This document shows positions 2,691 through 62,172 of a DNA stretch of 64,000 nucleotides, in pieces. A program made the translations under genes and the position numbers. The notes below the pieces were generated by a model. That model was not told the DNA's origin, made no database searches, and saw only the letters and a list, made by a program, of their open reading frames with translations. This DNA is from Clostridia bacterium (GTDB taxonomy: Bacteria; Bacillota; Clostridia; TANB77; CAG-508): positions 111,058-175,057 of the forward strand of contig JAFUGK010000007.1 of NCBI GenBank assembly GCA_017469445.1, in the 5' to 3' direction. Each line of letters begins with the position of its first letter. Position 1 is the stretch's first letter.

Positions 2691-4206
2691 ATGAGAGGAA
2701 AAAATGCAATATTAAATATAATTTCATCATTTGGATTACAAATTATCACAATAACATGTGGATTTATAATTCCTAAAATGATAATTGTGAACTATGGCTC
2801 TAATGTTAATGGATTAATAACATCAATTACTCAGTTCTTAAAATATATAGTATTACTAGAAGTTGGATTTGGACCAGTAGTAAAATCTATACTATATAAG
2901 CCAATAGCAAACCAAGATAAATATAAAATACAAGAAATATTAAAGGCATCAGAAAAGTTTTTTAGAATAATTGCATATATATTTATGGCTTATATAGTTG
3001 TTTTATGCATAATATTGCCAATGATAGTATTAAATGAATTTGATACTTTATTTACAATATCATTAATAATTATCATTGCAATAAGCACTTTTGCAGAGTA
3101 TTTTTTAGGAATGACATATAAATTATATATACAGGCAGAACAGAAAACATATATAATATCAAATATTCAGCTTATAACCTTAATACTAAATACAATATGT
3201 ACAATAGCTTTAATTTATTCTGGAATGAATATTCAAATAGTAAAACTAGCTACAGCCTTCATATTTGTATTAAGGCCAATCTTACAAATGATATATGTAA
3301 AGAAAAAGTATAACATAGATTTAAAAAATGTTAAAGACGATTATAATATAAAGCAAAAATGGTATGGATTAGCACAGCACATAGCATATATTGTTTATAA
3401 TAATACAGATGTAGTAATACTAACAGTATTTACAAATATAGTGGAAGTCTCAGTATATTCAATTTATATGTTAGTAGTAAGTAGCATAAAAAATATAGTT
3501 ATGTCTTTCTCATCTGGAATAGATGCAATATTTGGTAATATGATAGCAAAACGGAGAACAAGAGAATTTAAATAAAAATTTTAAGACATACGAAGAATTT
3601 TACTTTTCAGTAGCTACAATTTTATTTGCATCTACACTTGTGCTGATAATACCATTTATAAGTATATATACAAAAGATATAACAGATGCAAACTATATAA
3701 GACCAATATTTGCATATTTACTGGTTTTAGCAGAATTTATGTGGATGATAAGAAAACCATATCATGATATGGTAAAAACAGTGGGGCATTTTAAACAAAC
3801 TCAAATAGGGGCATGGGTAGAAGCTATAGTTAATATTGTGTTATCAATTATACTTGTATTAAAATTTGGAATAGTAGGAGTAGCAATAGGGACATTAATT
3901 GCTACACTAATAAGAACAATAGAGCTTATGTATTATACTTCAAAAAACATATTAAAAAGAAGTGTAGGGTATACATTTAAACGACTTTTAGTAATAGCAA
4001 TAGAAATCGTATTAATAGTTTTGATAATAAATGTAATGCCATCAATAGAAATAACAAATTACTTAACTTGGGCTATTTATTCTTTGGGAGTTTTTGCAAT
4101 CTCTAGTTTAATAGTATTTGTAATTGATTGGTTGGTATATAAAGAAAACATAAAAACATTGATTGAAAGAATAAAAAACATGAAAAGGACTGAAAAATAT
4201 GAATAA
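2691..4206 (+). pseudogene. Wzx-like polysaccharide flippase (PST family), single frameshift near 3547-3556
   Basis: The two ORFs (294 aa + 188 aa) together give ~12-14 TM helices. Frame 1 reads ...NGEQENLNKNFKTYEEF... continuously into the second ORF. The frame switch falls at an A4 run (gcaaaacgg). The typical Wzx ...AKNxxE... motif is reconstituted if one A is added. Confidence 0.65.
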
Positions 4207-5158
4207 ATATTTAGTTACAGGAGGAGCTGGATTTATAGGCTCTTCATTGTGTAAAGAATTGTTAAAACAGGGAAAACAAGTGGTGGTTATAGATAATTTT
4301 TGTGATTTCTATGTCCCTCGAATTAAAGAAAACAATATAAAAGAATTTGAAGGAAATCCAAATTTTAAAATATATAAAAAAGATATAAGAGATAGAAAAT
4401 CTATTAGGCAAGTGTTTGAGAAAAATGACATAGAGATAGTTATACATTTGGCAGCAATGGCAGGGGTAAGACCATCAATAGAGAATCCAATTCTGTATCA
4501 AGAGGTAAATTGTATAGGGACACAAAATATATTAGAAGAAATGAAAGAGCAGGGCATTAAAAATTTAGTTTTAGCATCGTCTAGTAGTGTATATGGTAAT
4601 TGCAAGCAAACACCATTTAAAGAAGATATGAATGTGGATTTTGCAATAAGTCCGTATGCAGCAACTAAAAAAGCAAATGAAGTAATGGCACATGTTTACC
4701 ATAAACTATATGGTATGAATGTAATGGTGTTAAGGTTTTTTACAGTATATGGACCAAAGCAAAGACCAGATTTAGCAATAAATAAGTTTACAAGATTAAT
4801 GCTAGAAAATAAAGAAATTCCAATGTATGGAGATGGAAGCACAGCTAGAGATTATACATATATAGATGATATTGTAGATGGAATAATTAAGTCATGTGAG
4901 TATATACAAAAAAATGATAATGTTTATGAAATAATAAATTTGGGGAATTCAAGACCAATACCATTAAAACAAATGATAAATACAATAGAAAATGCACTAG
5001 GAGTATACGCAAAAATAAAGCAATTACCAATGCAGCCCGGTGATGTAAATATAACTTATGCAGATATTTCTAAAGCAAAAGAATTAATTGGATATGAACC
5101 AAAAACACCATTTGAAGAAGGAATAAAAAAATTTGTAAATTGGTATAAAAAGTATTGA
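4199..5158 (+). CDS. NAD-dependent epimerase/dehydratase (UDP-sugar 4-epimerase-like)
   Basis: N-terminal TGGAGFIGS Rossmann motif; catalytic YAATK motif; 319 aa. Confidence 0.85.
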   Translation: MNKYLVTGGAGFIGSSLCKELLKQGKQVVVIDNFCDFYVPRIKENNIKEFEGNPNFKIYKKDIRDRKSIRQVFEKNDIEIVIHLAAMAGVRPSIENPILYQEVNCIGTQNILEEMKEQGIKNLVLASSSSVYGNCKQTPFKEDMNVDFAISPYAATKKANEVMAHVYHKLYGMNVMVLRFFTVYGPKQRPDLAINKFTRLMLENKEIPMYGDGSTARDYTYIDDIVDGIIKSCEYIQKNDNVYEIINLGNSRPIPLKQMINTIENALGVYAKIKQLPMQPGDVNITYADISKAKELIGYEPKTPFEEGIKKFVNWYKKY

Positions 5159-6732: not shown

Positions 6733-8937
6733 ATGAAAAAAATTGGAATTGCATTATTAGAATTAGTAATATTAATATTTAATTTCATAATAGGTGCAAA
6801 TGAAAAAGGATTAAGAGTTTTACCAATTAGTATATTAATGAGTTTAATAATTATATACTTAATAATAAAAAAGATTAAAGAACCTGATAAAAATATATTT
6901 TTTAAATCCAAAACTGATTATTTAGTATTACTTTTCATGCTTACAACAACTTTACCGTTTATATTTGGCACATACTGCTCATACACTAACACTGTAGAAT
7001 TCATTATAAAATATTTCTTTATTTATTCGGTTTATGTTTTGGCAAGAAATGTAATAACAGACAAAAAAGATTTAAATCAAATAATTACTGCAACACTAAT
7101 TTGCTCATTAATACCTATAATTTTGGGGATTGATAACATAAAAGGGAAATACCTATATTGGTTATGTGAAAAACTGGATTTGTTATATAGTGGCTCTGGG
7201 TCTTTTTCGGCAACTTTTGGATATGCAAATGCAGTGGCAATTTATATGTCTCTATGCTTGTTTTTATCTTTGTATAAAATCAAAAATAGCGAAAATAAAA
7301 ATGAAAAGATAATAACATTAATATATATTATATTTATATCTTATGTGATTTGGATGACAAACTCTAAAGCTGTAGTTGCCATACTTGTAGCAACTTTACT
7401 AATGTTTTTTATAATGGACAACAAGAAAAAAATTTGTGAAAATTGGAAGAAGGTTCTACTAGTATTATTAGCTGTAATAGCTCTTGGAGCACCTATAATA
7501 ATATATGCTATGGGAGTATCAACATCTGTATATATAGATGGAGATGAATATGAAGAAAAAATAAAGTATAGTTTTTTGCCAAACAAAGAGTATAAATTAG
7601 AATTAGATTTAGAATCGAGTGTAAAAGCTAAGCAAGTTAAAGATATGGCTTTTGAACTTCAAATAATACAGGAAAACCAATATTTTAAAGATAAAAAAAT
7701 TGCAAAAAAAAGATTTGGAATTGAGAATGGTATAATAGATATAGTATTTACACCTGAAGAGGATTGTAGTCGAATAAGATTAAAAATAACAAATGATTTT
7801 TATGGAAAAATAAATATTAGAAAATGTTATATAAATGGAGAAGAGTATATTCTTAAATATAAGTATTTACCTAAAGAAATAGGAAGAATATTTGTAGAAT
7901 ATAGGCTTGATCAAAAAAGCATTAAAGAAAGAATGTATATATATAGTGATTGCATAGAGATTGCTAAAAATAATTACATTATAGGTCAAGGTGGAAATAC
8001 TTGGAGAGTATTATCGCCAGTGTTTCATGATTATATGACTCTACTTAAAGAAACTCATAGTTATTTTTTTGAATTACTCATAAGCTATGGAATAGTGGGA
8101 GTGATAGCATTTTTGACATTTATAGTATCTCTATTTGTAAAAACCTTAAAAAAATTAAAGAATAACAAAGAAAAAGCATTAATATTTTTAGGAGTATTTT
8201 TGGTATTAATACATAGCTTTGTGTTTGATTTTAGTATGTCATTTATGCTTATACAGATAATAGTATACATTTATATAGCGGGATTACTAGATGACGAGCA
8301 GAATAATGAAAAAATTCCAAAGGCCCTTGACTATATATTAATACTATTTTTGATATTCATTTTGAGCGTATATATAAGAACAGATATAGCGGAGTATATA
8401 GTAAAAGATGCTAATGATAAACAAAGTATTGCTTCATATTCAAGAGAATATTGCTATAAAAAAATAGAGGCAGAAATAGAGAATAAAGAAGATAAAACCA
8501 AAATTTTAAATAATATTCAAGAACTAATGAATAAAGAGCCATATTATAATCAAACAGAATTACAAAAAAAGTATTTTAATCTAGTATGCGATAATATAGG
8601 AGAAATGTCAGATGAGGATTTAGAAAACTATTTGACATTTGTAACAGAAAAGCTAAAAACAGTAAAATTTAGGACTCCATTATTCATAGAAACAATATTA
8701 ACCAGAACAAAGGCAATTAAAGGTGCAATAAATAAATTACAGGAATACGCAAATGGATTATCTGAAGATTCTAAAACAAAAGAAATTATAGTAAATGCAG
8801 TAAAAGAATTAGAATGGGTATTAGATGGTGAATATGAAAGAAATGTTAGCAATATAGAATCAATAGATAAGACAGGCTATACAGAAAAGGATGCAAACTC
8901 AATAAAGAAAGAATATTTAGAAATCTTAAATAAGTAG
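6733..8937 (+). CDS. Wzy_C-domain membrane protein (O-antigen ligase/polymerase or O-oligosaccharyltransferase-like) with ~200-aa C-terminal soluble domain
   Basis: ~12 TM helices. Large extracytoplasmic loop ending in the ...ETHSYFFELLISYGIVG... motif (H-x2-Y...E..G..G of Wzy_C/WaaL/PglL). Lies directly downstream of pilin-like paralog A. Confidence 0.6.
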   Translation: MKKIGIALLELVILIFNFIIGANEKGLRVLPISILMSLIIIYLIIKKIKEPDKNIFFKSKTDYLVLLFMLTTTLPFIFGTYCSYTNTVEFIIKYFFIYSVYVLARNVITDKKDLNQIITATLICSLIPIILGIDNIKGKYLYWLCEKLDLLYSGSGSFSATFGYANAVAIYMSLCLFLSLYKIKNSENKNEKIITLIYIIFISYVIWMTNSKAVVAILVATLLMFFIMDNKKKICENWKKVLLVLLAVIALGAPIIIYAMGVSTSVYIDGDEYEEKIKYSFLPNKEYKLELDLESSVKAKQVKDMAFELQIIQENQYFKDKKIAKKRFGIENGIIDIVFTPEEDCSRIRLKITNDFYGKINIRKCYINGEEYILKYKYLPKEIGRIFVEYRLDQKSIKERMYIYSDCIEIAKNNYIIGQGGNTWRVLSPVFHDYMTLLKETHSYFFELLISYGIVGVIAFLTFIVSLFVKTLKKLKNNKEKALIFLGVFLVLIHSFVFDFSMSFMLIQIIVYIYIAGLLDDEQNNEKIPKALDYILILFLIFILSVYIRTDIAEYIVKDANDKQSIASYSREYCYKKIEAEIENKEDKTKILNNIQELMNKEPYYNQTELQKKYFNLVCDNIGEMSDEDLENYLTFVTEKLKTVKFRTPLFIETILTRTKAIKGAINKLQEYANGLSEDSKTKEIIVNAVKELEWVLDGEYERNVSNIESIDKTGYTEKDANSIKKEYLEILNK

Positions 8938-13178: not shown

Positions 13179-13277
13179 TTAATCTTGACGATAGCCTTTG
13201 TTACCACATCCACAGAAAAGTAGCAAAAATAGAATAATGAACCAAAGTATTTCATCATTATAGTAATCTCTTCCCAT
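13179..13277 (-). CDS. tiny TM protein, YjcZ-like sporulation family (32 aa), tandem paralog
   Basis: MGRDYYNDEILWFIILFLLLFCGCGNKGYRQD; RBS aaggagg 8 nt upstream; same architecture as neighbour. Confidence 0.45.
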   Translation of the reverse strand: MGRDYYNDEILWFIILFLLLFCGCGNKGYRQD

Positions 13278-13424
13278 AGTGCAAATACCTCCTTAATAAG
13301 ATTTTCTTGTAATTCCTTAGTATGTTATATAATATTCTTAGGTAAAAAAAGTGTTACAATAATTGTGAGGATGTTTCCAAATGAGGAAAAATTTCTTACT
13401 AGGATAGATTTTGAAAATTAATTA

Positions 13425-13453
13425 TTGCATTTATATTTTTCTTATGATATAAA
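13425..13453 (+). promoter_or_regulatory. sigma-A promoter of the paralog family (TTGCAT-N17-tgaTATAAAt)
   Basis: Shares the 'cttatgatataaat' extended -10 block with promoters at 56239, 58342 and 60847. Confidence 0.5.
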
Positions 13454-13487
13454 TTGGACAAATGAAACTATAGGAGGAAAAATATTA

Positions 13488-14576
13488 TGAAAAATACAAA
13501 AGAGATGAGACGGAATAACATTAATAGCACTTGTAATAACAATAATAGTGTTATTAATACTAGCAGGAGTAGCACTAGCTACACTTAATGGAAACACAAG
13601 TATAATAGACAATGCGAATTATGCAGTGGAGGAATACAATAAATCTGCAAATTCAGATCAAAATGTATTAAATCAAGTAAAAGACCTATTTGAAAAATAT
13701 ATGGGAGAAAGCAAGCCACCATTAGAACCAGTACCAGTAGTAGCAACAAATGGAGCAACAATAACGTATAATGCAAATGGTGGAACAGGAAACATTGAAG
13801 ATGGTTTTGTAGCACCATTAGGAAATGGCTTTAAAGGATGGAATACACAGCCTGATGGAAGTGGAACAAGTTATGCGCCAGGAGCAGAAGTAAGCCAAGA
13901 TTTAACACTTTATGCAATATGGGGAGGAACATACAGATTAGGACAAGAAGTATCAATACAAGTAGCAAAAGGAACAGAAACAGTTACAGAGAGCTTTTAT
14001 GTAATAGAAGATAAAGGAACAAGTGATGCAAACGTAACATTACTTGCAAAATATAACTTGGATAAAAATGTAGATGAAACAACAGGAAAATATTATCAAA
14101 AGCCAAATGCTACATTTGCTGATACAGCATGCGCGTTTTCAAGTACAAACTATTGGGCAACAAAATGGGAAGCAGTAGATATAGGGGAAAATGGAGAAAA
14201 TATAACAGCAAGAAGATTTGACTTAAATAATGAAGCAGAATATGGGGAAGTAGCAGAAGGAGATGCGATTGATAGAGCAAAAAATTATGCAAAAAATACA
14301 TTAGATTTAACAAGAAGCGCAGGAAGATTATTAACATATGAGGAAGCAATAAGACTTGAAAATTATTATAATTATATATTATTTGGAGATTTGATTGAAG
14401 GATATTTACATTATTGGCTTTCTTCTACATTTGAAGAAAATTATATTGAAGGTGGTATTTGGTGGATTCATGGCGATGAAGAAGTGGAAAGAGGTTATGT
14501 GTATAGCGGGGATGAATACGCCGATTTTGGTGTTCGCCCAGTAGTAACTGTTCCAAAAACAGCAATAAATCACTAG
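13488..14576 (+). pseudogene. surface protein paralog C (pilin-like N-module + Flg_new repeat + C-terminal beta domain), N-terminal frameshift
   Basis: Frame 0 reads MKNTKEMRRNNINS... and stops after 32 codons. A one-base shift at 'cggaataaca' restores ...ITLIALVITIIVLLILAGVALATLNGNTSIIDNANYAV... The listed ORF 13548-14576 begins inside the TM helix. It contains a Listeria-Bacteroides (Flg_new) repeat, ITYNANGGTG...GWNT..DGSGTSY...TLYAIW. Confidence 0.55.
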
Positions 14577-33740: not shown

Positions 33741-36700
33741 ATGGCAAAAAAACAAGTAAAAATAACTTTAGGAACATTTACAATATTAGTAATATCAATA
33801 ATACTATTAGTATTGGCTATTTTATTATGTGCTTATTTTATGTGGAATAAAAACATATTTAGCATAGGAGAAGAACCTATTAGTATCGCCAAAATTAAAA
33901 ATATAGAACCAACTAAAATGAATAATGGAATAATTGATAACACAACTGAATTTATAATAACTTCAGAAGAAAAGGTTAATCTAGATGATGTAAGAAAAGC
34001 GATATATGTAGAACCTGCACTTGAATATAGCATTGCTAAAACTGGCAATGAAAATGAATATAAACTAACATTTAAACAGAACATACCAGACAATACTATA
34101 GTAAAATTGCAATATATAAAAAATAAAATAGCAGAAGATAGTTGGGCATATCAGACCAAAAATCAATTAAGTGTTGTTAGCACATATCCATATCAAAATG
34201 AATGGATTAGTGAAAATAGTGCTATTGAAATAGAGTTTTCATATGTAAATGTTGAAAATGCAGAAAATTATTTTGAAATGCTACCAAATGTTGAAGGAAG
34301 ATGGGAACATAATAGAAAGATTTGGAGATTTATTCCAAACGAAGAATGGAAAACTGGAGATTATACATTAACAATAAAAAAAGGACTAACAGCAGGAGAT
34401 CAAAAACTAGAAGAAGATTATGTTTTTAAATTTAGGGTAAGTGGACAAACAGAGAGTACATATTCTAGAGAAAGTATAACAGTAGACAAAATAAATACAT
34501 ATAAACCAGATGAAGCAATAAGAATATATGGAACATTAGAAAAAGGAAATGTTGGAAAGATTAATATATATAAATTTGCCAGTAAAGATGAGTTTATAAA
34601 ATATTTAGAAGATAGAAACTATAACAATGCTCAAAATTTGGGAGAGTATAATTTCACCAAAACAGAAGCATATATACAACTGGAAAAAACTTTAGAAAAT
34701 GGATATTATGCAGCAGTAATTAGATCTTCAAAAGGTTATGTTGTAGATAATATACCAATACAAATTAACGAATTATCGGCATATGCTTTAGAAACAGAAA
34801 GAGATGTACTTGTATGGGTAGCAAAAGGAAATGATTTAGCAAAAGATATAAGTATAGAATATTTAGGAAAAACGGCAAAAACAGATTCACAAGGTGTTGC
34901 AAAATTTGAGAATATAACAGATAATTCTAAAGAGGTAAAATATCTAACTATTGATAATAAATTAATTGTGGGAATATTAAATAGTAATTTAGATGTATAT
35001 AATGCTGCATATTTATATACAGATAGACCATTATATAAAAATACAGATACCATTAAAGTGTGGGGATTTGTTCCCAAAAAATTATTCTATGATAAGGTAG
35101 ATGAAAATGAATTTTACATAGAATTTGGAGAAGAAGGAAAGAAAAAAGTATCAGTAGATGATGATGGAATTTTAAATTACGAATACAAAATACAAAATCA
35201 TGTGGATGGATATTTATCTGCAACACTATATTATAAGAATAGCTCAATAGCATATAGACCAATAGAAATAGAAAAGTATGAACTTCAAAATTATACATTT
35301 GAAACTTCACACAAAAAAGATTATGTGTTTGATGGTGAAAAATTTGATTTTGACGTTAAAGTTAAACATATAACAGGATTAAATGTAACAAATAAGAAAG
35401 TAACAGCAGTATTCGAAGGAGAAAATTATTCAGCTATAACAGGAGCAGATGGTGTGGCACATTTTTCATTACCAATAAAAATACCAGTTGGTAATAGAGA
35501 CAATACGACAAATTTAAAAGGATTTTCTATAAATATATATAGTGGAGATGCAATAGAATATTCAAATAATGAAAATAGTATATACGTAAATGTTATAAAC
35601 CGAAAAGCCTATACAGATTTTAAAGAAGAAAAAGATAAATATAAAATAACACTTTATAAATTAAGTGATAACGATCGTAAAACAGTAGAATATGATTTGA
35701 AGGAACTATATGATGGAACATACAAAAATGCAAGTGTTATAATAGATTTAGTAGAATATAAATATACTAGATATGTTAGTGGACAAAGATATAATGAATA
35801 CACAAAAGAAACAGAACCAGAGTATTCATATAAAACAGATAAAGATATACAAACTATAATTGCAGGGCAAACAGATGAAAACGGAGTAATAGAAGTAAAT
35901 AAAGATAGCCTAAAACTAAAAAAGGATTCAGATGGAATATCATATAGTTATGAATTAAGAGTATCATATGTAGATAGTGATGGAAAAACAGTTGAGGATT
36001 GTAATTATATAAGTAGATTTGATGAAGATGAAAATATAAAGCTTGGACATGTAAGATTCAATTGGAGTGATTTTGATAGTTCACAAATTAATTATTCGAA
36101 GTATGCTATATATAGATATTTCCTTAAATTTGATGAATATAAAAAATATAAAATAGGGGATACAATAGAGTTTAAATTAGGTGAAAGCACTGAAGCGGGA
36201 GAAAAAGAGATTGACAATGAAGGTAAACTATTACAAGTTGCCTTTAAAGAAGGAATACACTCTCAAAAAATTATTAGTGATAATAATATAAGTTATAAAT
36301 TTGAGAATAAAGATTTTCCAGGAACAAAATTAACATCAGCATATTTCCTAAATGGTAAATTCTATAGAATGCCAACATATTACTTAGATTTTGACGAAGA
36401 AGATAGAAAGGTTGATGTAGAGATTACATCAGATAAAACTGTATATAAACCAGGAGATGAAGTTACATTAAACATTAAAACAACTAACAAAGGAAAAGGT
36501 GTAAAAACTTCAGTTAATGTTAGTGTAGTAAATAAAGCTATTTTCGAATTAGAACATGACAACACAGATTTATTAGAAAGAATATATGAGAATAAAGAAT
36601 ACTTTGCATACACATATTCTACCTATAGAGACTATATAGAAACACAAGTTGGTGATGGATATGGTGGAGGAGACGATGATAGGGACGATTTTGAAGATAC

Positions 36701-38363
36701 AGCATATTTTGATACTGTAAAAACTAATAATGATGGAAACGCAACAGTTAAATTTAAGCTACCAGACAATGTAACAACATATACAGCAACAGTTCATAGC
36801 GCAAACAAGGACTTATACTTAGGTGTAAATAAATTAGAAATAGTTTCAAAACCAGATTTCTTTATACAAATTGTAGAACCAAGAGGTGTAAAAACAACAG
36901 ATGATTTAGTATTAAATGCAACAAGTATTTCAGATGAAAATTATCAGGTTGAATATGAATTCACAATAAAAGAATTAAATAAAACAATGAAAGCAACAGG
37001 AAATACAAATAATTTAGTAACAGTAAATTTTGGTAAATTACCATATGGTACATATACAGCAGTAATAAGAGGAAAAGGCAATAATAAAGAAGATGGAATA
37101 GAATACAAATTTAGTGTGGTTGAATCTGTGCAAGAAGTATCTGCAAAAGCGGATTTAAATATAGTAGAAAAACCAGAATTTAAACCAATAAAAATGCCAG
37201 TAACATTGGAAATATATAATAATGAAGTACAACAATATTTAAAATATATTGAATTTGTACAAACAAGGGTAAATAACAGATTAGATACACAAATTGCGAA
37301 TAGAGAAGTGCAAAAATTAAAAAATGAATTTTATGGAACAGATGATACAATATCTACAGTACCTGCCAGTGAATATAATTGGTATGGAGGATATTCAAAT
37401 TTAAAAAATGCAAGTAAAGATTTACTGCTTACTGCATTAATTAGTTATTATGCAGAAGAATATGCATTAAAACCAAATTGGACAGAAAATGATGACAATA
37501 TATTTGAACTATATTTATTAGCATCAGCCAATAAAGAGCCTGTGCTTACAGATGTATTATATTTGAAAGAAGAACAGGATATAGATAATTATAATAAATT
37601 GTTAGTAACACTATCACTTGAATTTTTAGGAGACTATAAAAATGCTAAAGAGTTATATGGAAAAATAGATTTAACACAAGAAGAAAAAGAAGAATATGCC
37701 TCTATAATTGCAATAATAGATACATTTATTAACAAAAAACAAGCAGTAGAAGAAATAAATAAATTGATAGAAGAAAAACCAGCAGATAATTACTTAAGAT
37801 TTGCTATATTATCATTCTTTAGAAATAATTCACAAGAATTTGCAAAAGAAGAAACAGTAAAAATAATAACAGCAAATTCAAGTGAGATAATAAAGCTAAA
37901 AGGAATGGAAATAAAAAAATATACTATTTATGAGGAAAATTTAGAAAACATAAAATTTGAGACAGATAGTAAAGATCTAAGAGTTACATATTATTATGAA
38001 GGAGATTTTGCTAATTTGAATGCAGAAGAATCAATACAAATTAGTGTGGATCCAATAGAAGGCAATGAGCTAAACTTACATATTCAATTTCCTAATGATT
38101 ATGAAGGTAATGTAAGAATTGCTCTTCCAAATTCATTAAGATTAGCTAGAAATTACAGAGCTTCATATTCTTCAGACAATAGGTATTATTTAAAAGACAA
38201 TAAAATACATTATATAACATTTTATAAAGGATCAAATTGTTATAGCATGGATATACCACTAATTATAACATGCTATGGAAATTACAAATTTGAACCAATT
38301 ATATTAACAGCAGAAGGAAGATATTATATATCAAATTCATTGGATTTAAATATAGGAGAGTAG
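33741..38363 (+). CDS. giant N-terminally anchored extracellular protein, alpha-2-macroglobulin-like architecture (beta-rich repeats + alpha/alpha-toroid region + C-terminal beta domain); no thioester CxEQ seen
   Basis: 1540 aa; single N-terminal TM; helical block ~aa 1180-1360 (LLTALISYYAEEYAL...LRFAILSFFRNN) flanked by beta-rich regions. Confidence 0.4.
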   Translation: MAKKQVKITLGTFTILVISIILLVLAILLCAYFMWNKNIFSIGEEPISIAKIKNIEPTKMNNGIIDNTTEFIITSEEKVNLDDVRKAIYVEPALEYSIAKTGNENEYKLTFKQNIPDNTIVKLQYIKNKIAEDSWAYQTKNQLSVVSTYPYQNEWISENSAIEIEFSYVNVENAENYFEMLPNVEGRWEHNRKIWRFIPNEEWKTGDYTLTIKKGLTAGDQKLEEDYVFKFRVSGQTESTYSRESITVDKINTYKPDEAIRIYGTLEKGNVGKINIYKFASKDEFIKYLEDRNYNNAQNLGEYNFTKTEAYIQLEKTLENGYYAAVIRSSKGYVVDNIPIQINELSAYALETERDVLVWVAKGNDLAKDISIEYLGKTAKTDSQGVAKFENITDNSKEVKYLTIDNKLIVGILNSNLDVYNAAYLYTDRPLYKNTDTIKVWGFVPKKLFYDKVDENEFYIEFGEEGKKKVSVDDDGILNYEYKIQNHVDGYLSATLYYKNSSIAYRPIEIEKYELQNYTFETSHKKDYVFDGEKFDFDVKVKHITGLNVTNKKVTAVFEGENYSAITGADGVAHFSLPIKIPVGNRDNTTNLKGFSINIYSGDAIEYSNNENSIYVNVINRKAYTDFKEEKDKYKITLYKLSDNDRKTVEYDLKELYDGTYKNASVIIDLVEYKYTRYVSGQRYNEYTKETEPEYSYKTDKDIQTIIAGQTDENGVIEVNKDSLKLKKDSDGISYSYELRVSYVDSDGKTVEDCNYISRFDEDENIKLGHVRFNWSDFDSSQINYSKYAIYRYFLKFDEYKKYKIGDTIEFKLGESTEAGEKEIDNEGKLLQVAFKEGIHSQKIISDNNISYKFENKDFPGTKLTSAYFLNGKFYRMPTYYLDFDEEDRKVDVEITSDKTVYKPGDEVTLNIKTTNKGKGVKTSVNVSVVNKAIFELEHDNTDLLERIYENKEYFAYTYSTYRDYIETQVGDGYGGGDDDRDDFEDTAYFDTVKTNNDGNATVKFKLPDNVTTYTATVHSANKDLYLGVNKLEIVSKPDFFIQIVEPRGVKTTDDLVLNATSISDENYQVEYEFTIKELNKTMKATGNTNNLVTVNFGKLPYGTYTAVIRGKGNNKEDGIEYKFSVVESVQEVSAKADLNIVEKPEFKPIKMPVTLEIYNNEVQQYLKYIEFVQTRVNNRLDTQIANREVQKLKNEFYGTDDTISTVPASEYNWYGGYSNLKNASKDLLLTALISYYAEEYALKPNWTENDDNIFELYLLASANKEPVLTDVLYLKEEQDIDNYNKLLVTLSLEFLGDYKNAKELYGKIDLTQEEKEEYASIIAIIDTFINKKQAVEEINKLIEEKPADNYLRFAILSFFRNNSQEFAKEETVKIITANSSEIIKLKGMEIKKYTIYEENLENIKFETDSKDLRVTYYYEGDFANLNAEESIQISVDPIEGNELNLHIQFPNDYEGNVRIALPNSLRLARNYRASYSSDNRYYLKDNKIHYITFYKGSNCYSMDIPLIITCYGNYKFEPIILTAEGRYYISNSLDLNIGE

Positions 38364-55689: not shown

Positions 55690-55710
55690 ATTTAAAAGGA
55701 GTTGATAAAA

Positions 55711-55929
55711 ATGACTATTTCTGTAAGATTAAACGAAGAAGATACAGAACTTATAAAAGCATACGCAGAAATTAAAAATATATCTTTATCAGATTTAATA
55801 AGGGAAGCTGTTTTGGAAAAAATAGAAGATGAATTAGATTTAAAGGCATATGAAGAAGCAATGAAAGAATATAAGAAAAATCCAAAAACCTATACACTTG
55901 AAGAAGTAAAAAAGGAGTTAGGAATATGA
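55711..55929 (+). CDS. relB: type II antitoxin (RelB/DinJ-like, ribbon-helix-helix)
   Basis: MTISVRLNEEDTELIKAYAE... RHH N-terminus; 4-nt ATGA overlap with toxin; start moved to ATG 55711. Confidence 0.7.
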   Translation: MTISVRLNEEDTELIKAYAEIKNISLSDLIREAVLEKIEDELDLKAYEEAMKEYKKNPKTYTLEEVKKELGI

Positions 55930-56201
55930 AAAAATACAAAGTAGTATTTACAGATAAAGCAAAAAAACAATTTAAAAAATTAGATAAGCATATTGAACTA
56001 TTATTAATGGGTTGGATTGAAAAAAATCTAGAAGGATGTTCTAATCCAAGATTACATGGAAAAGCATTAATTGCAGATAAAACAGGTAAATGGAGATATA
56101 GGATTGGAAATTATAGATTAATTGCCCAAATAGAGGATGATAAAATTATAATACTAATATTGAATGTTGGGCATAGAAGAGAAATATATAAGAAAGATTA
56201 A
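55926..56201 (+). CDS. relE: type II toxin RelE/ParE family
   Basis: 91 aa; KVVFTDKAKKQFKKLDK...WRYRIGNYRLIAQIEDDKIIILILNVGHRREIY classic RelE fold sequence. Confidence 0.8.
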   Translation: MKKYKVVFTDKAKKQFKKLDKHIELLLMGWIEKNLEGCSNPRLHGKALIADKTGKWRYRIGNYRLIAQIEDDKIIILILNVGHRREIYKKD

Positions 56202-56267: not shown

Positions 56268-56323
56268 TATTTTATAAAATATTTATGGGTAGAATATTGC
56301 TCATATGTGAAAGGATGAATTTT

Positions 56324-58258
56324 ATGAAAAAAACTAAAGAGATTCGAGGTATTACATTAATAGCATTAGTAATAACAATAATAGTATTACTAATACTAGC
56401 AGGAGTAGCACTTGCTACACTTACAGGGAATAGTAGTATAATAGATAATGCAAATTATGCAGTAGAGGAATACAATAAATCTGCCAATTCAGATCAAAAT
56501 GTATTAAATCAGGTAGAAGATTTATTTGCTAAATATATGGGAACAGAAACTAAATACACAATAACATATAATGCAAATGGTGGAACAGGAACAATGGAAG
56601 TAGAGCAATCTTCAAGGACAGGTATAAATAAGTTTGTACCACCAGAAGGAAAAGTGTTTAAACATTGGAATGTATCAGCAGATGGAAGTGGGACAAGTTA
56701 TAGAGAAGGAGCACAAGTTTCATCTGATGTGACATTATATGCTATATGGGCAACAAAAATAGAACAACAATATGGTAATCTAGTAAATGAACAAAATGAA
56801 ACAGTAACACCAGAATTATTTGAATGGGAGCCAATAACAGAACCAGGAGTGGCAGTAATAAGACATAATTCAAATGCAAATGGAGTAGATGGAATAGTAT
56901 CAAGAGGAGATACACCTACTGCAACAACACTAAAAGGAACAGCAAAAATAACGGGAATAAATTGGGAGTATTTTGCAAGTGGCGATGATTCAAGTATTTT
57001 TGAAGTAAAAGAAAATGATAAAAAAGGATCTACATGGTCTGAGGAATATGCGGGTATTGTTACTAATTATGAAGCTTTTGGATCTACAGGATATACAATA
57101 AGTGTAAAAACAAACCAAAAGATGAATGAAATTAAGAACAAAATGAAAAAATTGATAATACCATATGAAGTAACAAAAGAAGTTGATGGGGTCACAAAAA
57201 CATATACAGTTACAGATATAGATGCAAAATATATGTATAACGATGTTGAATTTAAAATCTTAGAAGATACAGACGTAGATATGGGAAGCTACAGTGAAGT
57301 GGAAAGTGGAAGTATATCATTTTATGAATTCTTTTATGGAACAATTGACGAAAATGAATCATCATACTTGATTATTCCAAGCTGTATAGAACATATAGGA
57401 AATATAAATATTTTCCCATGTGAATATATAGTGTTTGCAGAAGATAGTAATCTTACGGGATTTGGCGTTGAAAAAGCGCCAAAAGAGCCTTTAACAAATA
57501 TATATACTAAATCTATCATATTACCAAATGATATTCAAAAAGTAGGGAAAAAGGCATTTTCAAACTTTACTGCACTAGAGAGTATTATAATACCAGATAG
57601 TGTAACAGAAATAGGAGAATCAGCATTTGAAGGATGTTCAAGTCTTAAAAATGTAACAACGCCAAGAAATTTAAAAATTATAGGACCTTCTGCATTCAAA
57701 GATTGTGATAAATTAGAAAACATAACAATACCAAGTGGGGTTACTTATATTGGGGGTTCAGCATTCTCGGGTTGTAGAGAACTAACAAATGTAGTATTAC
57801 CGAATGGTATTAAAAGAATAGACTTTGCAGCGTTTAATGGTTGCGCAAAAATAACAAGCATGGAGATACCAGATAGTGTAATTGAATTAGGAACTAGGGC
57901 ATTTTCTGGTTGCAAATTAACAAGCTTAACGATACCAAATAGTGTGACAAAATTAGGGAGCTCTATAGTTGAAAACTGTACTACTTTAACAAGTATAGTA
58001 TTTCCAGAAAATATGACAGAAATGCCATATAAAATATGTTCTGGATGTACCGGATTAGAAAGTATTACTATTCCAGATGGAGTTACTAATTTTGGAATAG
58101 GATGTTTCTATAACTGTACAGGGCTTAAAACTATAAATTATAAAGGTGTTGAGTATAGAAAAATTTCAGATTTTAAAAATGCATTGACAGCAAATGGAAT
58201 TAAATTAAATACAACAGGTGAGCCTTCATTTGGAAATGTAAGCTTAATAGATGACTAA
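56324..58258 (+). CDS. surface protein paralog D: pilin-like N-module + Flg_new repeat + GINW middle module + BspA-type LRR C-terminus
   Basis: MKKTKEIRG|ITLIALVITIIVLLILAGVALATL; YTITYNANGGTG...HWNVSADGSGTSY...TLYAIW; ~10 LRR_5 repeats; RBS aaagga 8 nt upstream of ATG 56324. Confidence 0.65.
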   Translation: MKKTKEIRGITLIALVITIIVLLILAGVALATLTGNSSIIDNANYAVEEYNKSANSDQNVLNQVEDLFAKYMGTETKYTITYNANGGTGTMEVEQSSRTGINKFVPPEGKVFKHWNVSADGSGTSYREGAQVSSDVTLYAIWATKIEQQYGNLVNEQNETVTPELFEWEPITEPGVAVIRHNSNANGVDGIVSRGDTPTATTLKGTAKITGINWEYFASGDDSSIFEVKENDKKGSTWSEEYAGIVTNYEAFGSTGYTISVKTNQKMNEIKNKMKKLIIPYEVTKEVDGVTKTYTVTDIDAKYMYNDVEFKILEDTDVDMGSYSEVESGSISFYEFFYGTIDENESSYLIIPSCIEHIGNINIFPCEYIVFAEDSNLTGFGVEKAPKEPLTNIYTKSIILPNDIQKVGKKAFSNFTALESIIIPDSVTEIGESAFEGCSSLKNVTTPRNLKIIGPSAFKDCDKLENITIPSGVTYIGGSAFSGCRELTNVVLPNGIKRIDFAAFNGCAKITSMEIPDSVIELGTRAFSGCKLTSLTIPNSVTKLGSSIVENCTTLTSIVFPENMTEMPYKICSGCTGLESITIPDGVTNFGIGCFYNCTGLKTINYKGVEYRKISDFKNALTANGIKLNTTGEPSFGNVSLIDD

Positions 58259-58302
58259 ATAGAGAATGAAGATTCCAAATAAATATATTAGAATTTGTAT
58301 AT

Positions 58303-58340
58303 AAAAAACAATGTAAATAATTTAATTTACATTGTTTTTT
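58303..58340 (+). terminator. rho-independent terminator
   Basis: aaaaaacaatgtaaat-aattt-aatttacattgtttttt. Confidence 0.65.
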
Positions 58341-58341
58341 A

Positions 58342-58370
58342 TTGCAAATATTGTTATGTTATGATATAAA
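58342..58370 (+). promoter_or_regulatory. repeat-family promoter copy 2
   Basis: ttgcaa 58342-58347; tataaa 58365-58370; same gttatgatataaat block. Confidence 0.55.
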
Positions 58371-58401
58371 TCTATCAAGAGAATATTATAAGGAAATATA
58401 A

Positions 58402-60009
58402 ATGGTGCAGAAGATGAAAAAGTTTATTAGTAAAAATTGGTTAATACTAGTATTAATATTAATAACAATTTTAAGAATTGTGCTAACATTTAATTTGCCT
58501 AGTTTTTATATAAATAATTTGCGATATGATGATAAATTGATGATAAGCCAATTAAGTGCTATGGAAAGAGACAAATACTTAGGTAAGTATAATGATGTTA
58601 CAATGGTTAAAGGTATAGCATATCCAATATTTCTATATTTAATAAGATTAACTAATATGAGTTATGGCTTTATAATAACAATAATATATATATCAGCATG
58701 TATATTCTTTGTTAATGCATTAAGAAAAATAATAAAAGATAAATCAGTTTTAGCAATAATATATATCTTTTTGCTTTTTAATCCTATTAGTTATTCAAGC
58801 GAGTTATTTCAAAGATTATATAGAAATGGGCTAACAATAATTGAGCTACTATATTTCTTAGGAATTATAGTAAATATTATTACTTCTAAAAAGAATTCAT
58901 TTATTAATTATATATTTTTAGGGTTAATAATGTCTTTTATGCTTTTAACACGAGAAGATAATATATGGATAATCATTGTGTTTGCAGTTTTAGTAATATA
59001 TAAATTGTATAAGGAATTTAAAATAAAAAACGTTTTAAAATTTTCAAGTGCAGTATTGGTAGCTTTTATAGGACTAAACATAGTATCATATATTAACTAT
59101 AAGAACTATGATATATATACATACAATGAATTAACAGATTCAAATTTCAAGGATGCATATATTAAAATACTTCAAATAAAGGATGAAAAAAAAGAAAATC
59201 AAGTAGCAATTACTAAAGAAACATTATATAAACTTTCAGAGAAATCTGAAATGTTTAATATTCCTAAAGGATTTATTGATTTAAAGTATCAAAAATTGGC
59301 AGATGAAAATGGAGAAATATATAATGGTAATATAGTTTGGTATATAAGAGCTTGGGTATATCAAGTAAATGGCTTTAAAAATGGTAAAGAGGCAAATGAG
59401 TATTGGGGAAAGTTAAGTAATGAAATAGAAGAGTTATTTGAAAAAGGTGAATTAGAAAGAGAATTTGTTATTCCATCTGTAAAACTCAATACACCGACAA
59501 TTGATGAAATAGCAGAATTACCTAAGAATTTTATAGATGCAATTATATATACTACAACATATAAAAATGTTAAAAGCTTTACAAAAAAAGATATGGAAGA
59601 TAGATACTTTGTATTTGATGAAAAATTTGATGCATATTATACAACATTTAGAGATTATCATGATGCAGAGAACATTATAGATAATAACCCAATTGGATTT
59701 GAAATGATAAGAATTGTATATATGTGCTTCACAGTAGTATTTAGTATTATAGCATTAGTTATTTATGTGAAAAATATTAAAATTAGAGATAAGCTAAACT
59801 TATTAACACATATTACTTTACTTGTTTATTTAATAATATTAGCAGGAATAGCATATACACATACAACAGCTTTTTCATCAATCAGATATTGTTACTTAGG
59901 AAATGTTTATATATTACAAAATTTATTTATATTATTAAATGCGGCAAGAGTGTATGATAAGAAAAGAGGAAATAAGAATGATATCAGTAATAATACCAGC
60001 ATACAATGA
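58402..60009 (+). CDS. GT-C-fold-like polytopic membrane protein (putative lipid-linked-sugar-dependent glycosyltransferase, GtrC/PMT-like)
   Basis: 535 aa; N-terminal TM then loop with RYDDKL acidic motif; ~8 N-terminal and ~3 C-terminal TMs with a soluble middle; immediately upstream of and overlapping a GtrB-like GT2. Confidence 0.4.
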   Translation: MVQKMKKFISKNWLILVLILITILRIVLTFNLPSFYINNLRYDDKLMISQLSAMERDKYLGKYNDVTMVKGIAYPIFLYLIRLTNMSYGFIITIIYISACIFFVNALRKIIKDKSVLAIIYIFLLFNPISYSSELFQRLYRNGLTIIELLYFLGIIVNIITSKKNSFINYIFLGLIMSFMLLTREDNIWIIIVFAVLVIYKLYKEFKIKNVLKFSSAVLVAFIGLNIVSYINYKNYDIYTYNELTDSNFKDAYIKILQIKDEKKENQVAITKETLYKLSEKSEMFNIPKGFIDLKYQKLADENGEIYNGNIVWYIRAWVYQVNGFKNGKEANEYWGKLSNEIEELFEKGELEREFVIPSVKLNTPTIDEIAELPKNFIDAIIYTTTYKNVKSFTKKDMEDRYFVFDEKFDAYYTTFRDYHDAENIIDNNPIGFEMIRIVYMCFTVVFSIIALVIYVKNIKIRDKLNLLTHITLLVYLIILAGIAYTHTTAFSSIRYCYLGNVYILQNLFILLNAARVYDKKRGNKNDISNNTSIQ

Positions 60010-60841
60010 GGAAGAAGCAATAGAAAAAACAATAGATGAAGTAAAAGAAGTTATGAAAAGTAACAAGCTAAATGATGGATTGGAAATAATAGTAGTAAAT
60101 GATGGCTCAACAGATAAAACAAGTAAAAAAGCTGAAGCAAAAGGCGTAACAGTAATAAATAATCCTCAAAATATGGGATATGGTTATTCGCTAAAAAAAG
60201 GAATAAAAGCTGCTAAAAATGAAACCATTGTAATAACAGACGCAGATTTAACATATCCGTTTTCATCTGTACCAGAAATGTTAAAAATGAAGGAAAAAGG
60301 ATTTGACCTTGTGGTAGGAGCAAGAAGCGGAAAGTACTATAAACAATCAATTTTTAAAAACATGCTAAGAAAAATATTAAAAGGTTTTGTAGAGTTTATT
60401 TCTGGCAAAAAAGTAAAAGATGTAAACTCTGGCTTAAGAGTATTTGACAAATCTACAGTAATTAAGTTTTTTCCAAGATTATGCAACACATTTAGCTTTA
60501 CAACTTCGCAAATGCTTGCATACGCAATGAATGACTTGACAATATATTATGTGGATATTCCATATAATAAAAGAACAGGAAAAACAAAAGTAAAACTTTT
60601 AAAAGATTCAATAAAATCGATGAGATATATTCTTGAGGCTGGGATATACTATAATCCACTTAAAATATTCGTTTTGTTGACACTGATATGTATAGCGCTA
60701 TCTGTTATTGGATTTTTATGTTCTCATTTCCTAAAAATAAACGCAGGATATGTTTTAGGAATTGGTGGACTTTTAGTATCAATTATAGTATTTGCATTAG
60801 GAATACTATCAGCATTATTAAAACAAATAATGGATAAATAA
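59978..60841 (+). CDS. polyprenol-phosphate glycosyltransferase (GtrB/CsbB/Ppm1-like GT2 with two C-terminal TM helices)
   Basis: MISVIIPAYNEEEAI...VVNDGSTD...ITDADL then C-terminal TM pair; start ATG 59978 with RBS aaagagga. Confidence 0.75.
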   Translation: MISVIIPAYNEEEAIEKTIDEVKEVMKSNKLNDGLEIIVVNDGSTDKTSKKAEAKGVTVINNPQNMGYGYSLKKGIKAAKNETIVITDADLTYPFSSVPEMLKMKEKGFDLVVGARSGKYYKQSIFKNMLRKILKGFVEFISGKKVKDVNSGLRVFDKSTVIKFFPRLCNTFSFTTSQMLAYAMNDLTIYYVDIPYNKRTGKTKVKLLKDSIKSMRYILEAGIYYNPLKIFVLLTLICIALSVIGFLCSHFLKINAGYVLGIGGLLVSIIVFALGILSALLKQIMDK

Positions 60842-60846
60842 ATTTA

Positions 60847-60875
60847 TTGAAATTTATATTTTGTTATGATATAAA
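60847..60875 (+). promoter_or_regulatory. repeat-family promoter copy 3 (TTGAAA-N17-tgaTATAAAt)
   Basis: shared block ttttgttatgatataaatatttta. Confidence 0.5.
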
Positions 60876-60918
60876 TATTTTAGAAAATATATGTAGGTAA
60901 ACAGAAAGGATGAATTCT

Positions 60919-62172
60919 ATGAAAAGAACAAAAGAACAAGGTATTACATTAATAGCATTAGTAATAACAATAATAGTGCTATTAATATTAGCAGGAGTGG
61001 TATTAGCCACATTAACAGGAAATAGTAGCATAATAGATAATGCAAATTATGCAGTTGGAGAGTATAGTAAATCTGCAAATGCAGACCAAAATGTATTGAA
61101 TAAAGTAGAAGATTTATTTGCTAAATATATGGGAACAGAAACTAAATACACAATAACATATAATGCAAATGGTGGAACAGGAACAATGGAAGAAGAGGAA
61201 GCATCAAGAACAGCAACAAGTACATTTATACCACCAGAAGGAAAACAATTTAAAGAATGGAATACAGCGGCAGATGGAAGTGGGACAAGTTATGCAGCAG
61301 GAGCACAAATCCCATCAAATGTGGATTTATATGCAATATGGTATGACCCATTAAGCGCACATGTAAGTGTAGGAGATTATATAGAATATAATCCAACATT
61401 AGGAGTTACAAATCAGAGTTTAATTAATTATACAAGTTCAGTGGGAACAATTAAGGTAAAAAGTGGAAATGATTATGTTTTAAATGAAGATGGTACAAAT
61501 ACGGAATCGTTTGTATATAATGGAGCATATAATTTAATAAATCAGAATGGAGAAATAGTAACAGAAGGGTATACAGTGGAAAGTGACATACCAGGAAATG
61601 GATATGGTAATCAAGAATTTGAAGCATCATCAACAAATAACCTATGGCTAGTTCTTGGTATAGATGAAGAAACTGGAATGATAAAAATTGTTCCTGATTC
61701 TGCAATTTTAACGAAAACAAGCCAATTATTTACGTTAAAAGGATTAAGAGGATATAAAAATGGAGAAACAGAATTAGATAATATAAGTAGAATATTTGGC
61801 TATGGACAAGGTGCAGATTCTTCTAAAACTAGAAGTATAAGATTAGACGAAATAAATGTATTAACACATTATAGCCCAAGTTCTAGAAGTTATACGATAG
61901 AAGGTATAAATAAAACATTTAATGATAACTCATGTTATTATACAGATGATGATGATGGGTATGGTCATGATATTTATACATGTGATAATGATAAAATAAA
62001 TAATCTAATATATATAGGAAAAAATAATTGGATTGCAAATAAGGTGGTTGTTTGTGAAGAGCATTATGGAGAAGCAGTTGGATTTTCTGTTAGCTGTGCA
62101 TGTGAAGGTTATTTTGCTAATGCTATAAGATATGGATATGATTTATTCGAAGTAAATGATGAACGGAGATGA
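60919..62172 (+). CDS. surface protein paralog E: pilin-like N-module + Flg_new repeat + distinct Cys/Asp-rich domain; probably continues downstream through two frameshifts
   Basis: MKRTKEQG|ITLIALVITIIVLLILAGVVLATL; 5' 250 nt ~90% identical to paralog D at DNA level. Confidence 0.55.
   Translation: MKRTKEQGITLIALVITIIVLLILAGVVLATLTGNSSIIDNANYAVGEYSKSANADQNVLNKVEDLFAKYMGTETKYTITYNANGGTGTMEEEEASRTATSTFIPPEGKQFKEWNTAADGSGTSYAAGAQIPSNVDLYAIWYDPLSAHVSVGDYIEYNPTLGVTNQSLINYTSSVGTIKVKSGNDYVLNEDGTNTESFVYNGAYNLINQNGEIVTEGYTVESDIPGNGYGNQEFEASSTNNLWLVLGIDEETGMIKIVPDSAILTKTSQLFTLKGLRGYKNGETELDNISRIFGYGQGADSSKTRSIRLDEINVLTHYSPSSRSYTIEGINKTFNDNSCYYTDDDDGYGHDIYTCDNDKINNLIYIGKNNWIANKVVVCEEHYGEAVGFSVSCACEGYFANAIRYGYDLFEVNDERR

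Follow-up and report, generated by a model that had tools for sequence, protein, structure and literature searches.

We examined a 64,000-nucleotide stretch of DNA (the window) from contig JAFUGK010000007.1 of a Clostridia bacterium, and in it a pair of overlapping genes flanked by genes for two paralogous surface proteins, D (56285-58258) and E (60910-62172); the open reading frame (ORF) coordinates agree with the position given in a preliminary description of this locus. The upstream gene encodes a membrane glycosyltransferase with a predicted GT-C fold and no family name, and the downstream gene encodes a GT2 enzyme related to polyprenol-phosphate sugar synthases. We hold it to be fairly probable that the two proteins form a lipid-carrier-dependent glycosylation module acting outside the cytoplasm, and that its acceptor is a glycan chain, not an unmodified polypeptide. 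The pair comprises the following features, where TM denotes a transmembrane helix and pLDDT the predicted local distance difference test score.

58402-60009, forward strand: gene for the GT-C-fold membrane glycosyltransferase of an unnamed family, 535 residues, about 10 membrane helices, both termini predicted to be cytoplasmic.
58528-58533, forward strand: codons of Asp43-Asp44 (R-Y-D-D-K-L), candidate catalytic residues in the first outside loop, about 13 residues past TM1.
59098-59691, forward strand: mostly helical domain of about 200 residues (residues 233-430), with a predicted extracytoplasmic location between TM7 and TM8 and high pLDDT in the full model.
59978-60009, forward strand: 32-nt overlap of the GT-C and GT2 genes, the GT2 gene being in the +1 frame.
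59978-60841, forward strand: gene for the GT2 polyprenol-phosphate glycosyltransferase (GtrB/ArnC/DPMS type), 287 residues.
60239-60247, forward strand: codons of the D88-A-D90 (DxD) motif of the GT2, aligned with DADL of ArnC, DPMS and GtrB.
60638-60838, forward strand: C-terminal membrane-helix pair of the GT2 (residues ~221-286), with hydropathy peaks of 2.94 and 2.73.

By homology, the GT2 is a polyprenol-phosphate glycosyltransferase of the GtrB/ArnC/DPMS type. Its ORF is open from 59939, and a ribosome-binding site (AGAGGA) supports the ATG at 59978; the gene calls of orthologous contigs take the equivalent start, which gives 287 residues. The protein matches Pfam PF00535 (Glycos_transf_2) at 1.4e-29. 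Against the PDB, it matches ArnC (9bhc, 9e-15), Pyrococcus DPMS (5mlz, 5e-14) and Synechocystis GtrB (5ekp, 1e-13), and the alignments span residues 2-270 on GtrB and 2-248 on ArnC, reaching the membrane-helix region in both cases. The best NCBIfam matches (AglJ, haloarchaeal Dol-P-hexose transferase, PgfS, ArnC and PpgS) are all polyprenol-phosphate sugar synthases, with scores far below the equivalog cut-offs (102 against 325 bits for AglJ and 86 against 500 bits for PgfS).

A Pfam scan of the 535-residue protein gave no match at E values up to 0.1, and by Pfam model it is neither YfhO (PF09586) nor PMT_2/PMT (PF13231, PF02366). Its sole NCBIfam match is WsfD (NF051875), with 28.2 bits (E 7.5e-7, residues 89-246), below the 80-bit cut-off. 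Sequence and profile searches against PDB chains, using the single protein, A1 and A4, returned chance matches only. The AlphaFold2 model, made from an alignment of 59 relatives (pLDDT 93.3; predicted template modelling score 0.92), is of the GT-C fold. All Foldseek matches in the PDB with a probability of at least 0.5 are GT-C enzymes, namely AglB, STT3A/B, ArnT, PglB, EmbB, ALG3, Pmt4, Pmt1/2, GPI mannosyltransferase I and DPY19 (best E value 5e-3; TM-scores 0.30-0.44). Matches outside GT-C, such as G-protein-coupled receptors and transporters, reach a probability of 0.10 at most. The ranks of the GT-C subfamilies are close and do not discriminate among them.

The model helices and the positive-inside rule (Lys/Arg density of 12/41 in the predicted cytoplasmic loops and 10/81 in the short outside loops) lead to a topology of about 10 helices with both termini in the cytoplasm. 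Asp43 and Asp44 are both invariant in the 59 close relatives; in 65 relatives of 20-46% identity, Asp43 is invariant and Asp44 is kept in at least 90%. Their place in loop 1, about 13 residues past TM1, matches the site of the catalytic Asp in ArnT, PglB and PMT. We infer a catalytic role for Asp43 and Asp44. Further conserved positions (K70, N127-P128, Q137-R138, R184-E185-D186 and Y498) line the ends of helices or the loops on the outside. The large domain that follows TM7 on the outside corresponds in place to the MIR domain of PMT and may be an acceptor-binding domain. Modelled separately (residues 234-432), it has a pLDDT of 72 and no fold match in the PDB (best E value 1.2).

Gene fusions and gene neighbourhoods of relatives indicate that the GT-C protein and the GT2 are functionally linked. 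Among the 120 matches listed (44-95% identity), six (P0005, P0016, P0017, P0022, P0024 and P0038) are single proteins of about 820 residues in which the GT2 is C-terminal to the GT-C part, and three are proteins of about 660 residues with an N-terminal GtrA fused to GT-C. The order of the parts in both fusion types is compatible with the predicted GT-C topology. We surveyed 23 loci, which differ in genome or context. In most of them (including L001-5, L008, L010, L014, L016, L018-21, L023, L025 and L026), the GT-C gene adjoins a GtrB-like GT2 or is fused to it; in three more, the GT2 lies 2-6 kb away. GtrA is adjacent or fused in seven (L004, L014, L016, L018, L019, L021 and L023). This linkage is conserved across relatives of 28-95% identity. 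A further GT-C copy that has no GT2 of its own occurs in some genomes (L011 with L019, L022 with L008, and two copies in L027), as would be expected if several transferases draw on one lipid-linked sugar. The absence of an adjacent GtrA-like flippase, noted in the preliminary description, extends to the whole window, where tblastn with six GtrA sequences found no GtrA (nothing better than E 0.05), whereas in close relatives GtrA adjoins the pair or is joined to GT-C in one protein. Weak GtrA matches at 13181-13309 were rejected, being small cysteine-rich ORFs. One flippase, encoded elsewhere, can be shared among several such systems (PMC8035078).

The fusions and the widespread adjacency to GT2 and GtrA tie the GT-C protein to a monophosphate-linked single-sugar donor. 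Alternatively, the GT-C protein might not use the GT2 product, and might handle a diphosphate-linked oligosaccharide as an oligosaccharyltransferase, ligase or polymerase, with the GT2 feeding another pathway. The top fold matches are indeed oligosaccharyltransferases (AglB, STT3 and PglB), and a glycan assembly cluster of the Wzx/Wzy_C type lies at 1-12 kb in the window. However, the Foldseek ranking among GT-C subfamilies does not discriminate, and the single-polypeptide GT-C::GT2 and GtrA::GT-C fusions point to the other kind of donor, so we regard this alternative as improbable. It is scarcely credible that the adjacency is meaningless, with the GT2 acting on a cytoplasmic or membrane-lipid acceptor and the 535-residue protein being a transporter or a non-enzymatic membrane protein. 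The family has no curated model and no experimentally characterised member, which leaves room for such a view, but the GT-C fold, the invariant acidic motif in an outside loop, the fusions and the linkage kept across 28-95% identity all speak against it. The preliminary description had called the pair a GT-C-like transferase with a GtrB/Ppm1-like synthase, and had likened it to lipid-carrier-dependent extracytoplasmic glycosylation systems. Both statements are borne out by fold, sequence, topology, conserved adjacency and fusions. It had also suggested the fold and topology of the 58402 product as the point to check, with a transporter fold or a cytoplasmic substrate of the GT2 as the outcomes opposed to its view; the product proved to have a GT-C fold with about 10 helices and the acidic Asp43/Asp44 motif in its first outside loop, and neither of the two opposed outcomes is borne out.

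The GT-C family is large and unnamed. Searching 1.84 billion cluster representatives with a profile gave 3,292 members at E < 1e-3 (clusters at 50% identity), 1,017 of which fall below 1e-30; the family ranges from uncultured ruminant-gut Bacillota and Enterococcus faecium to Citrobacter plasmids and high-GC bacteria. Pfam and NCBIfam models do not cover it, and NCBIfam finds none for the Enterococcus and Citrobacter homologs. The WsfD model is matched by 15 of the 59 relatives at E < 0.01 (best value 7.5e-7). Among the 65 more distant relatives there are one GtrII match and one weak PMT_2 match (2.3e-5), the latter suggesting remote kinship only, and YfhO is absent from the 25 families listed. 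The GT-C protein is related to known GT-C enzymes by its fold and its acidic loop-1 motif only. We found no characterised member of the family, and the RefSeq name is 'hypothetical protein'. Many Enterococcus faecium/lactis sequences have a member gene, which stands alone beside mntH and a penicillin-binding protein gene and is called 'glucosyltransferase', without explanation, in two NCBI records; the members on Enterococcus megaplasmids are called 'hypothetical protein'. On a Citrobacter braakii plasmid, the gene order is gtrA, family member and GT2, close to rfbBAD. One distant member is fused to a full-length LtaS (P0215, 3.3e-80) and another to an OpgB-like phosphoglycerol transferase domain (P0154), and two more consist of two tandem GT-C modules (P0236 and P0249). 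The natural fusions to GT2, GtrA and LtaS give the family a firm functional frame, so that it could be named and tested.

The transcription signals around the pair are as follows.

58301-58342, forward strand: AT-rich terminator hairpin with an 18-bp stem and a U tract, which closes paralog D and parts it from the GT-C/GT2 unit.
58339-58371, forward strand: copy of the paralog-family promoter, with the -35 element TTGCAA at 58342-58347, a 17-nt spacer and the TG-extended -10 element TATAAA at 58365-58370.
60844-60876, forward strand: next promoter copy, upstream of paralog E.

These were found by a specific motif search and hairpin folding, which replaced a generic sigma-70 and terminator scan. 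The generic sigma-70 scan was uninformative in this AT-rich DNA (57 found and 58 expected), and the generic terminator scan found none in the window, missing the hairpin at 58301-58342 because its stem has too few G-C pairs. This hairpin has a folding energy of -16.5 kcal/mol (z = -6.1 against shuffled sequences), and none of 200 shuffles folds equally well. The 33-nt promoter motif TTATTGMAA-N10-GTTATGATATAAAT occurs four times in the 64 kb (at 13422, 56236, 58339 and 60844), where 0.04 occurrences are expected, and every copy precedes either a paralog or the GT-C gene, in agreement with the earlier statement that the pair uses the family promoter. The upstream regions of paralogs 5239, 13487, 56285 and 60910 align with that of the GT-C gene, and the likeness ends at the -10 element, the 5' untranslated regions being different. 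The pair should be expressed together with the adhesins, because it has its own copy of their promoter. We found no terminator between the GT2 stop codon and the promoter at 60844; the segment 60800-60850 folds weakly (z = -1.8). The GT-C gene and the adjoining pilin-like gene have unlike promoters at other loci, and promoter sharing was not seen beyond the lineage of the window and L001.

The same 32-nt overlap of the GT-C and GT2 genes is called in L001, L002, L003 and L025, and the two genes are likely to be translationally coupled through it. We rejected the possibility that the two ORFs are one frameshifted gene, since these four loci keep the overlap and other relatives have separate, non-overlapping genes. 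Occasional +1 frameshifting within 59978-60009 might nevertheless produce a GT-C::GT2 fusion protein.

The proposed mechanism has three steps. The GT2, held in the membrane by its two C-terminal helices, would, as its homology suggests, load undecaprenyl phosphate at the cytoplasmic face with a single sugar taken from a nucleotide sugar, in the manner of GtrB, ArnC and DPMS. A flippase of the GtrA type or of another type, encoded elsewhere in the genome, would then flip the lipid-linked sugar. Finally, the GT-C protein, whose fold is seen in the model, would use Asp43/Asp44 to transfer the sugar onto an extracytoplasmic acceptor. The acceptor, the weakest step of the scheme, may be a secondary wall or teichoic-type polymer, or a glycan on the neighbouring surface proteins as with WsfH/WsfD.

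The case for a glycan or polymer acceptor is made by the LtaS and OpgB fusions, the O-antigen (rfb) context in Citrobacter, the WsfD link, two loci (L007 and L009), the lack of Ser/Thr-rich disordered tracts in the window paralogs, and the literature, in which Bacillota systems of this type decorate mostly lipoteichoic acid, wall teichoic acid or wall polysaccharides (PMC8035078). In L007 (9586-13697), the genes after the GT-C gene encode first a homolog of the window Wzy_C protein (35% identity) and then a fusion of a TuaG-like GT2 with a TarF-like domain. In L009, it is followed by an epimerase gene (65% identical to window 4199-5158) and a UDP-glucose 6-dehydrogenase gene. The Wzy_C protein of the window (6733-8937, 734 residues) is of the O-antigen ligase/O-oligosaccharyltransferase type and is encoded between paralogs A and B; a pilin/adhesin O-oligosaccharyltransferase and a polymerase are candidate roles for it. 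We also observed that the L007 set of Wzy_C and TuaG-like::TarF-like (glycerophosphotransferase) genes resembles the S-layer glycosylation locus of Paenibacillus alvei.

Several points weigh against this interpretation. The LtaS fusions and the Citrobacter cluster belong to distant relatives (~21-26% identity), and acceptor specificity can vary within a GT-C family. The window has no flippase, LtaS or teichoic-acid gene, and tblastn for LtaS and UDP-glucose dehydrogenase found neither in the window. No sugar can be named for the GT2, because its NCBIfam matches are all far below the equivalog cut-offs. In addition, a surface-protein neighbour is far commoner than the background, which fits a protein acceptor at least equally well.

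Among the possible acceptors, we place a wall or membrane glycopolymer first, with a little less than an even chance. A protein that is O-glycosylated directly is unlikely but deserves serious attention, while a glycan on surface proteins and an acceptor of some other kind each have a small chance. Adhesins or teichoic acids had been put forward in the preliminary description. The evidence keeps both and adds a glycan chain, as with WsfD, as a third option. In one reading, WsfD-like decoration of surface-protein glycans reconciles the glycan-side with the adhesin-side evidence. Should a wall polymer be the acceptor, the family would bring a further class to the enzymes that set phage receptors and surface antigenicity.

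The flanking surface proteins bear on the acceptor as well.

56285-58258, forward strand: paralog D, with a pilin-like N-terminus, a Flg_new repeat (5e-10) and a BspA-type leucine-rich repeat (LRR) region (LRR_5, 1.3e-67); candidate acceptor.
60910-62172, forward strand: paralog E, a flanking surface-protein paralog with its own promoter copy.

A pilin-like surface-protein gene lies immediately upstream of the GT-C gene in six loci (L001, L008, L009, L024, L025 and L026), whose housekeeping surroundings differ (rplQ, ligA, relA-hisS, V-ATPase and uvrA). Elsewhere, the GT-C gene adjoins genes for LRR_5, PARCEL or Flg_new_2 proteins, whose N-terminal anchors are of the SipW type or of other types. 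When a single N-terminal anchor is taken as a crude criterion, N-anchored proteins are encoded by 21 of the 47 flanking genes and, within the same loci, by 43 of the 204 remaining genes (odds ratio 3.0, Fisher p = 0.0012), and 17 of the 23 loci have at least one N-anchored flanking gene.

The same donor chemistry could serve a different acceptor, the polypeptide of the neighbouring N-anchored LRR/Flg_new surface proteins, which would be O-glycosylated directly outside the cytoplasm, in the way of actinobacterial Ppm1/PMT or of streptococcal PgfS/PgfM1 and GtrB/PgtC2. The recurrence of such neighbours in differing surroundings, their enrichment, the adhesin-family promoter of the window pair and the large TM7-TM8 outside domain, placed like the MIR domain of PMT, are in its favour, and the pgf cluster of Streptococcus mutans, which includes its own adhesin substrates, provides a precedent (PMC12041528). 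However, we found in the window paralogs none of the Ser/Thr-rich disordered stretches that are the known bacterial targets (Pgf/PgtC2 type). These genomes are also dense in such surface-protein genes (background 21%), so the adjacency is weaker evidence than it appears. Furthermore, the promoters of the GT-C gene and the adjoining pilin-like gene are unlike in other loci, the fusions and contexts of the family as a whole favour glycan or polymer acceptors, and the 535-residue protein is not YfhO or PMT_2 by sequence. We consider direct protein glycosylation unlikely, and continue to favour a glycan acceptor. A more specific and more doubtful proposal is that the GT-C family is a dedicated protein O-glycosyltransferase for the N-anchored (pilin-like or SipW-type) LRR/Flg_new adhesins of gut Bacillota, and that it reads folded or N-terminal regions through its outside domain of about 200 residues rather than Ser/Thr-rich tracts. 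If true, bacteria would have a third way of O-glycosylating proteins outside the cytoplasm, next to the PMT and YfhO/Pgf types. The recurrent linkage of the family to adhesins gives a testable question, and if this linkage reflects the acceptor, it would show how abundant uncultured gut Firmicutes decorate their adhesins.

Some other observations concern the surface proteins. Paralogs 5239, 9976, 56285, 60910 and 63166 share a prepilin-like N-terminus, K/R-G-ITLIALVITIIVLLILAGV, in which Ala replaces the canonical Glu at +5 and which matches Pfam N_methyl weakly; the neighbour of the GT-C gene in L009 (6150-7868) has the canonical GFTLIE form. Paralog C (13422-14576) has an intact family promoter and an out-of-frame pilin-like N-terminus: a short ORF (13487-13588) begins with MKNTKEM, and the main ORF begins at 13548, inside the hydrophobic helix. 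It is a pseudogene or a sequencing frameshift. The paralog at 62241-63134 (weak DUF6273 match) starts with GTG right after paralog E and lacks an N-terminal anchor, as does its L001 ortholog; its product may have another means of export or attachment, or may work with paralog E as its partner. We dropped the N-X-S/T sequons found in the conserved N-terminal part of the paralogs, because on inspection they are not conserved in the pilin-like neighbours of other loci. L004 (12148-16630) and L019 (9745-14191) hold a GT2, a GtrA domain and the GT-C gene, with GtrA fused to GT-C in L004 and separate in L019. In both, the genes that come next encode a SipW-like signal peptidase together with several small proteins that bear TasA/camelysin-type signals (…GYGxYSYFYT). 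One of these small proteins has a long Ser/Gly/Thr-rich tract and is a candidate glycosylation target.

The window as a whole has a G+C content of about 28%, and its long genes are exclusively on the forward strand. Its larger features are these.

1-12 kb: glycan-assembly cluster of the Wzx/Wzy_C type.
Elsewhere in the window: housekeeping genes, including those for the spore germination protease and MurB.
Ending at 55.5 kb: ribosomal-protein/rpoA operon.
3' part of the window: run of surface-protein paralogs, after the rpoA operon and a ParE-type toxin-antitoxin pair.

The nearest public relatives are contigs and metagenome-assembled genomes from animal guts (hosts include sheep, goat and water deer), labelled as Clostridia, Bacilli or Erysipelotrichaceae bacterium. 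The type II toxin-antitoxin pair at 55702-56201 (a DUF6290/ribbon-helix-helix antitoxin and a ParE toxin) lies between rplQ and paralog D. In L001, the 95%-identical orthologous locus, rplQ is directly followed by paralog D without this pair, which is therefore a strain-specific insertion. In the glycan-assembly cluster, UDP-galactopyranose mutase is broken into two ORFs, of which 1592-2161 matches model positions 23-179 and 2158-2670 matches 202-376, and the multi-spanning Wzx-like membrane protein that follows is likewise broken (2691-3575 and 3640-4206). Just 5' of the ribosomal-protein operon, the gene at 33741-38363 encodes an alpha-2-macroglobulin-like protein of 1,540 residues, with an A2M bait region domain and an A2M domain.

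We compared the pair with known systems. The three-component (or multi-component) transmembrane systems CsbB/GtcA/YfhO, GtlA/GtcA/GtlB and GacI/GacK/GacL of Bacillota and GtrA/GtrB/GtrC of enterobacteria and their phages likewise combine a membrane-anchored GT2 with a multi-spanning GT-C-fold transferase (PMC8035078). GtrA is adjacent or fused in relatives of the window pair, and a flippase encoded elsewhere is a known arrangement. The window differs in lacking a flippase, and its GT-C protein differs in not being YfhO, PMT_2 or GtrII by sequence and in having the helical outside domain of about 200 residues without a fold match.

The WsfH/WsfD pair of the P. alvei S-layer locus (PMC2943079) is alike in other respects. 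WsfD is the sole named family matched by the GT-C protein, and WsfH/WsfD is also a pair of GT2 and membrane transferase with no flippase in its cluster, beside surface-protein glycosylation genes. WsfB of that locus is a Wzy_C protein and WsfC a TuaG-like/TarF-like enzyme, and both kinds of protein are also encoded in the window and in L007. The match to WsfD has 28 bits against the 80-bit cut-off, is shared by 15 of 59 relatives, and spans some 160 residues (positions 99-256 of the 452 in the model). WsfH/WsfD put branching glucose on the S-layer glycan (PMC2943079), and by analogy the window pair might branch a glycan in the same manner.

PgfS/PgfM1 of S. mutans and GtrB/PgtC2 of S. pyogenes and S. 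pneumoniae are also pairs of GT2 and GT-C proteins acting outside the membrane (PMC12041528, PMC5856776). The Pgf system has its adhesin substrates in the same cluster, just as the paralogs of the window are clustered with the pair, and PgfS is among the better NCBIfam matches of the GT2, although at 86 bits against the 500-bit cut-off. PgfM1 and PgtC2, in contrast, are YfhO-domain proteins, and their targets are Ser/Thr-rich disordered regions, which the window paralogs lack.

Ppm1 and PMT of actinobacteria and eukaryotes similarly combine a polyprenol-phosphate sugar synthase with a GT-C protein whose loop 1 bears an acidic motif and whose TM7 is followed by a large domain on the outside or in the lumen. 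The Foldseek matches include PMT structures, though with TM-scores of about 0.3, and the window protein has no PMT/PMT_2 Pfam match or MIR domain. The logic of the mechanism, in which a GtrB-like synthase works with a GT-C transferase, is already known, and the new part is the family of the GT-C component, which existing models do not cover.

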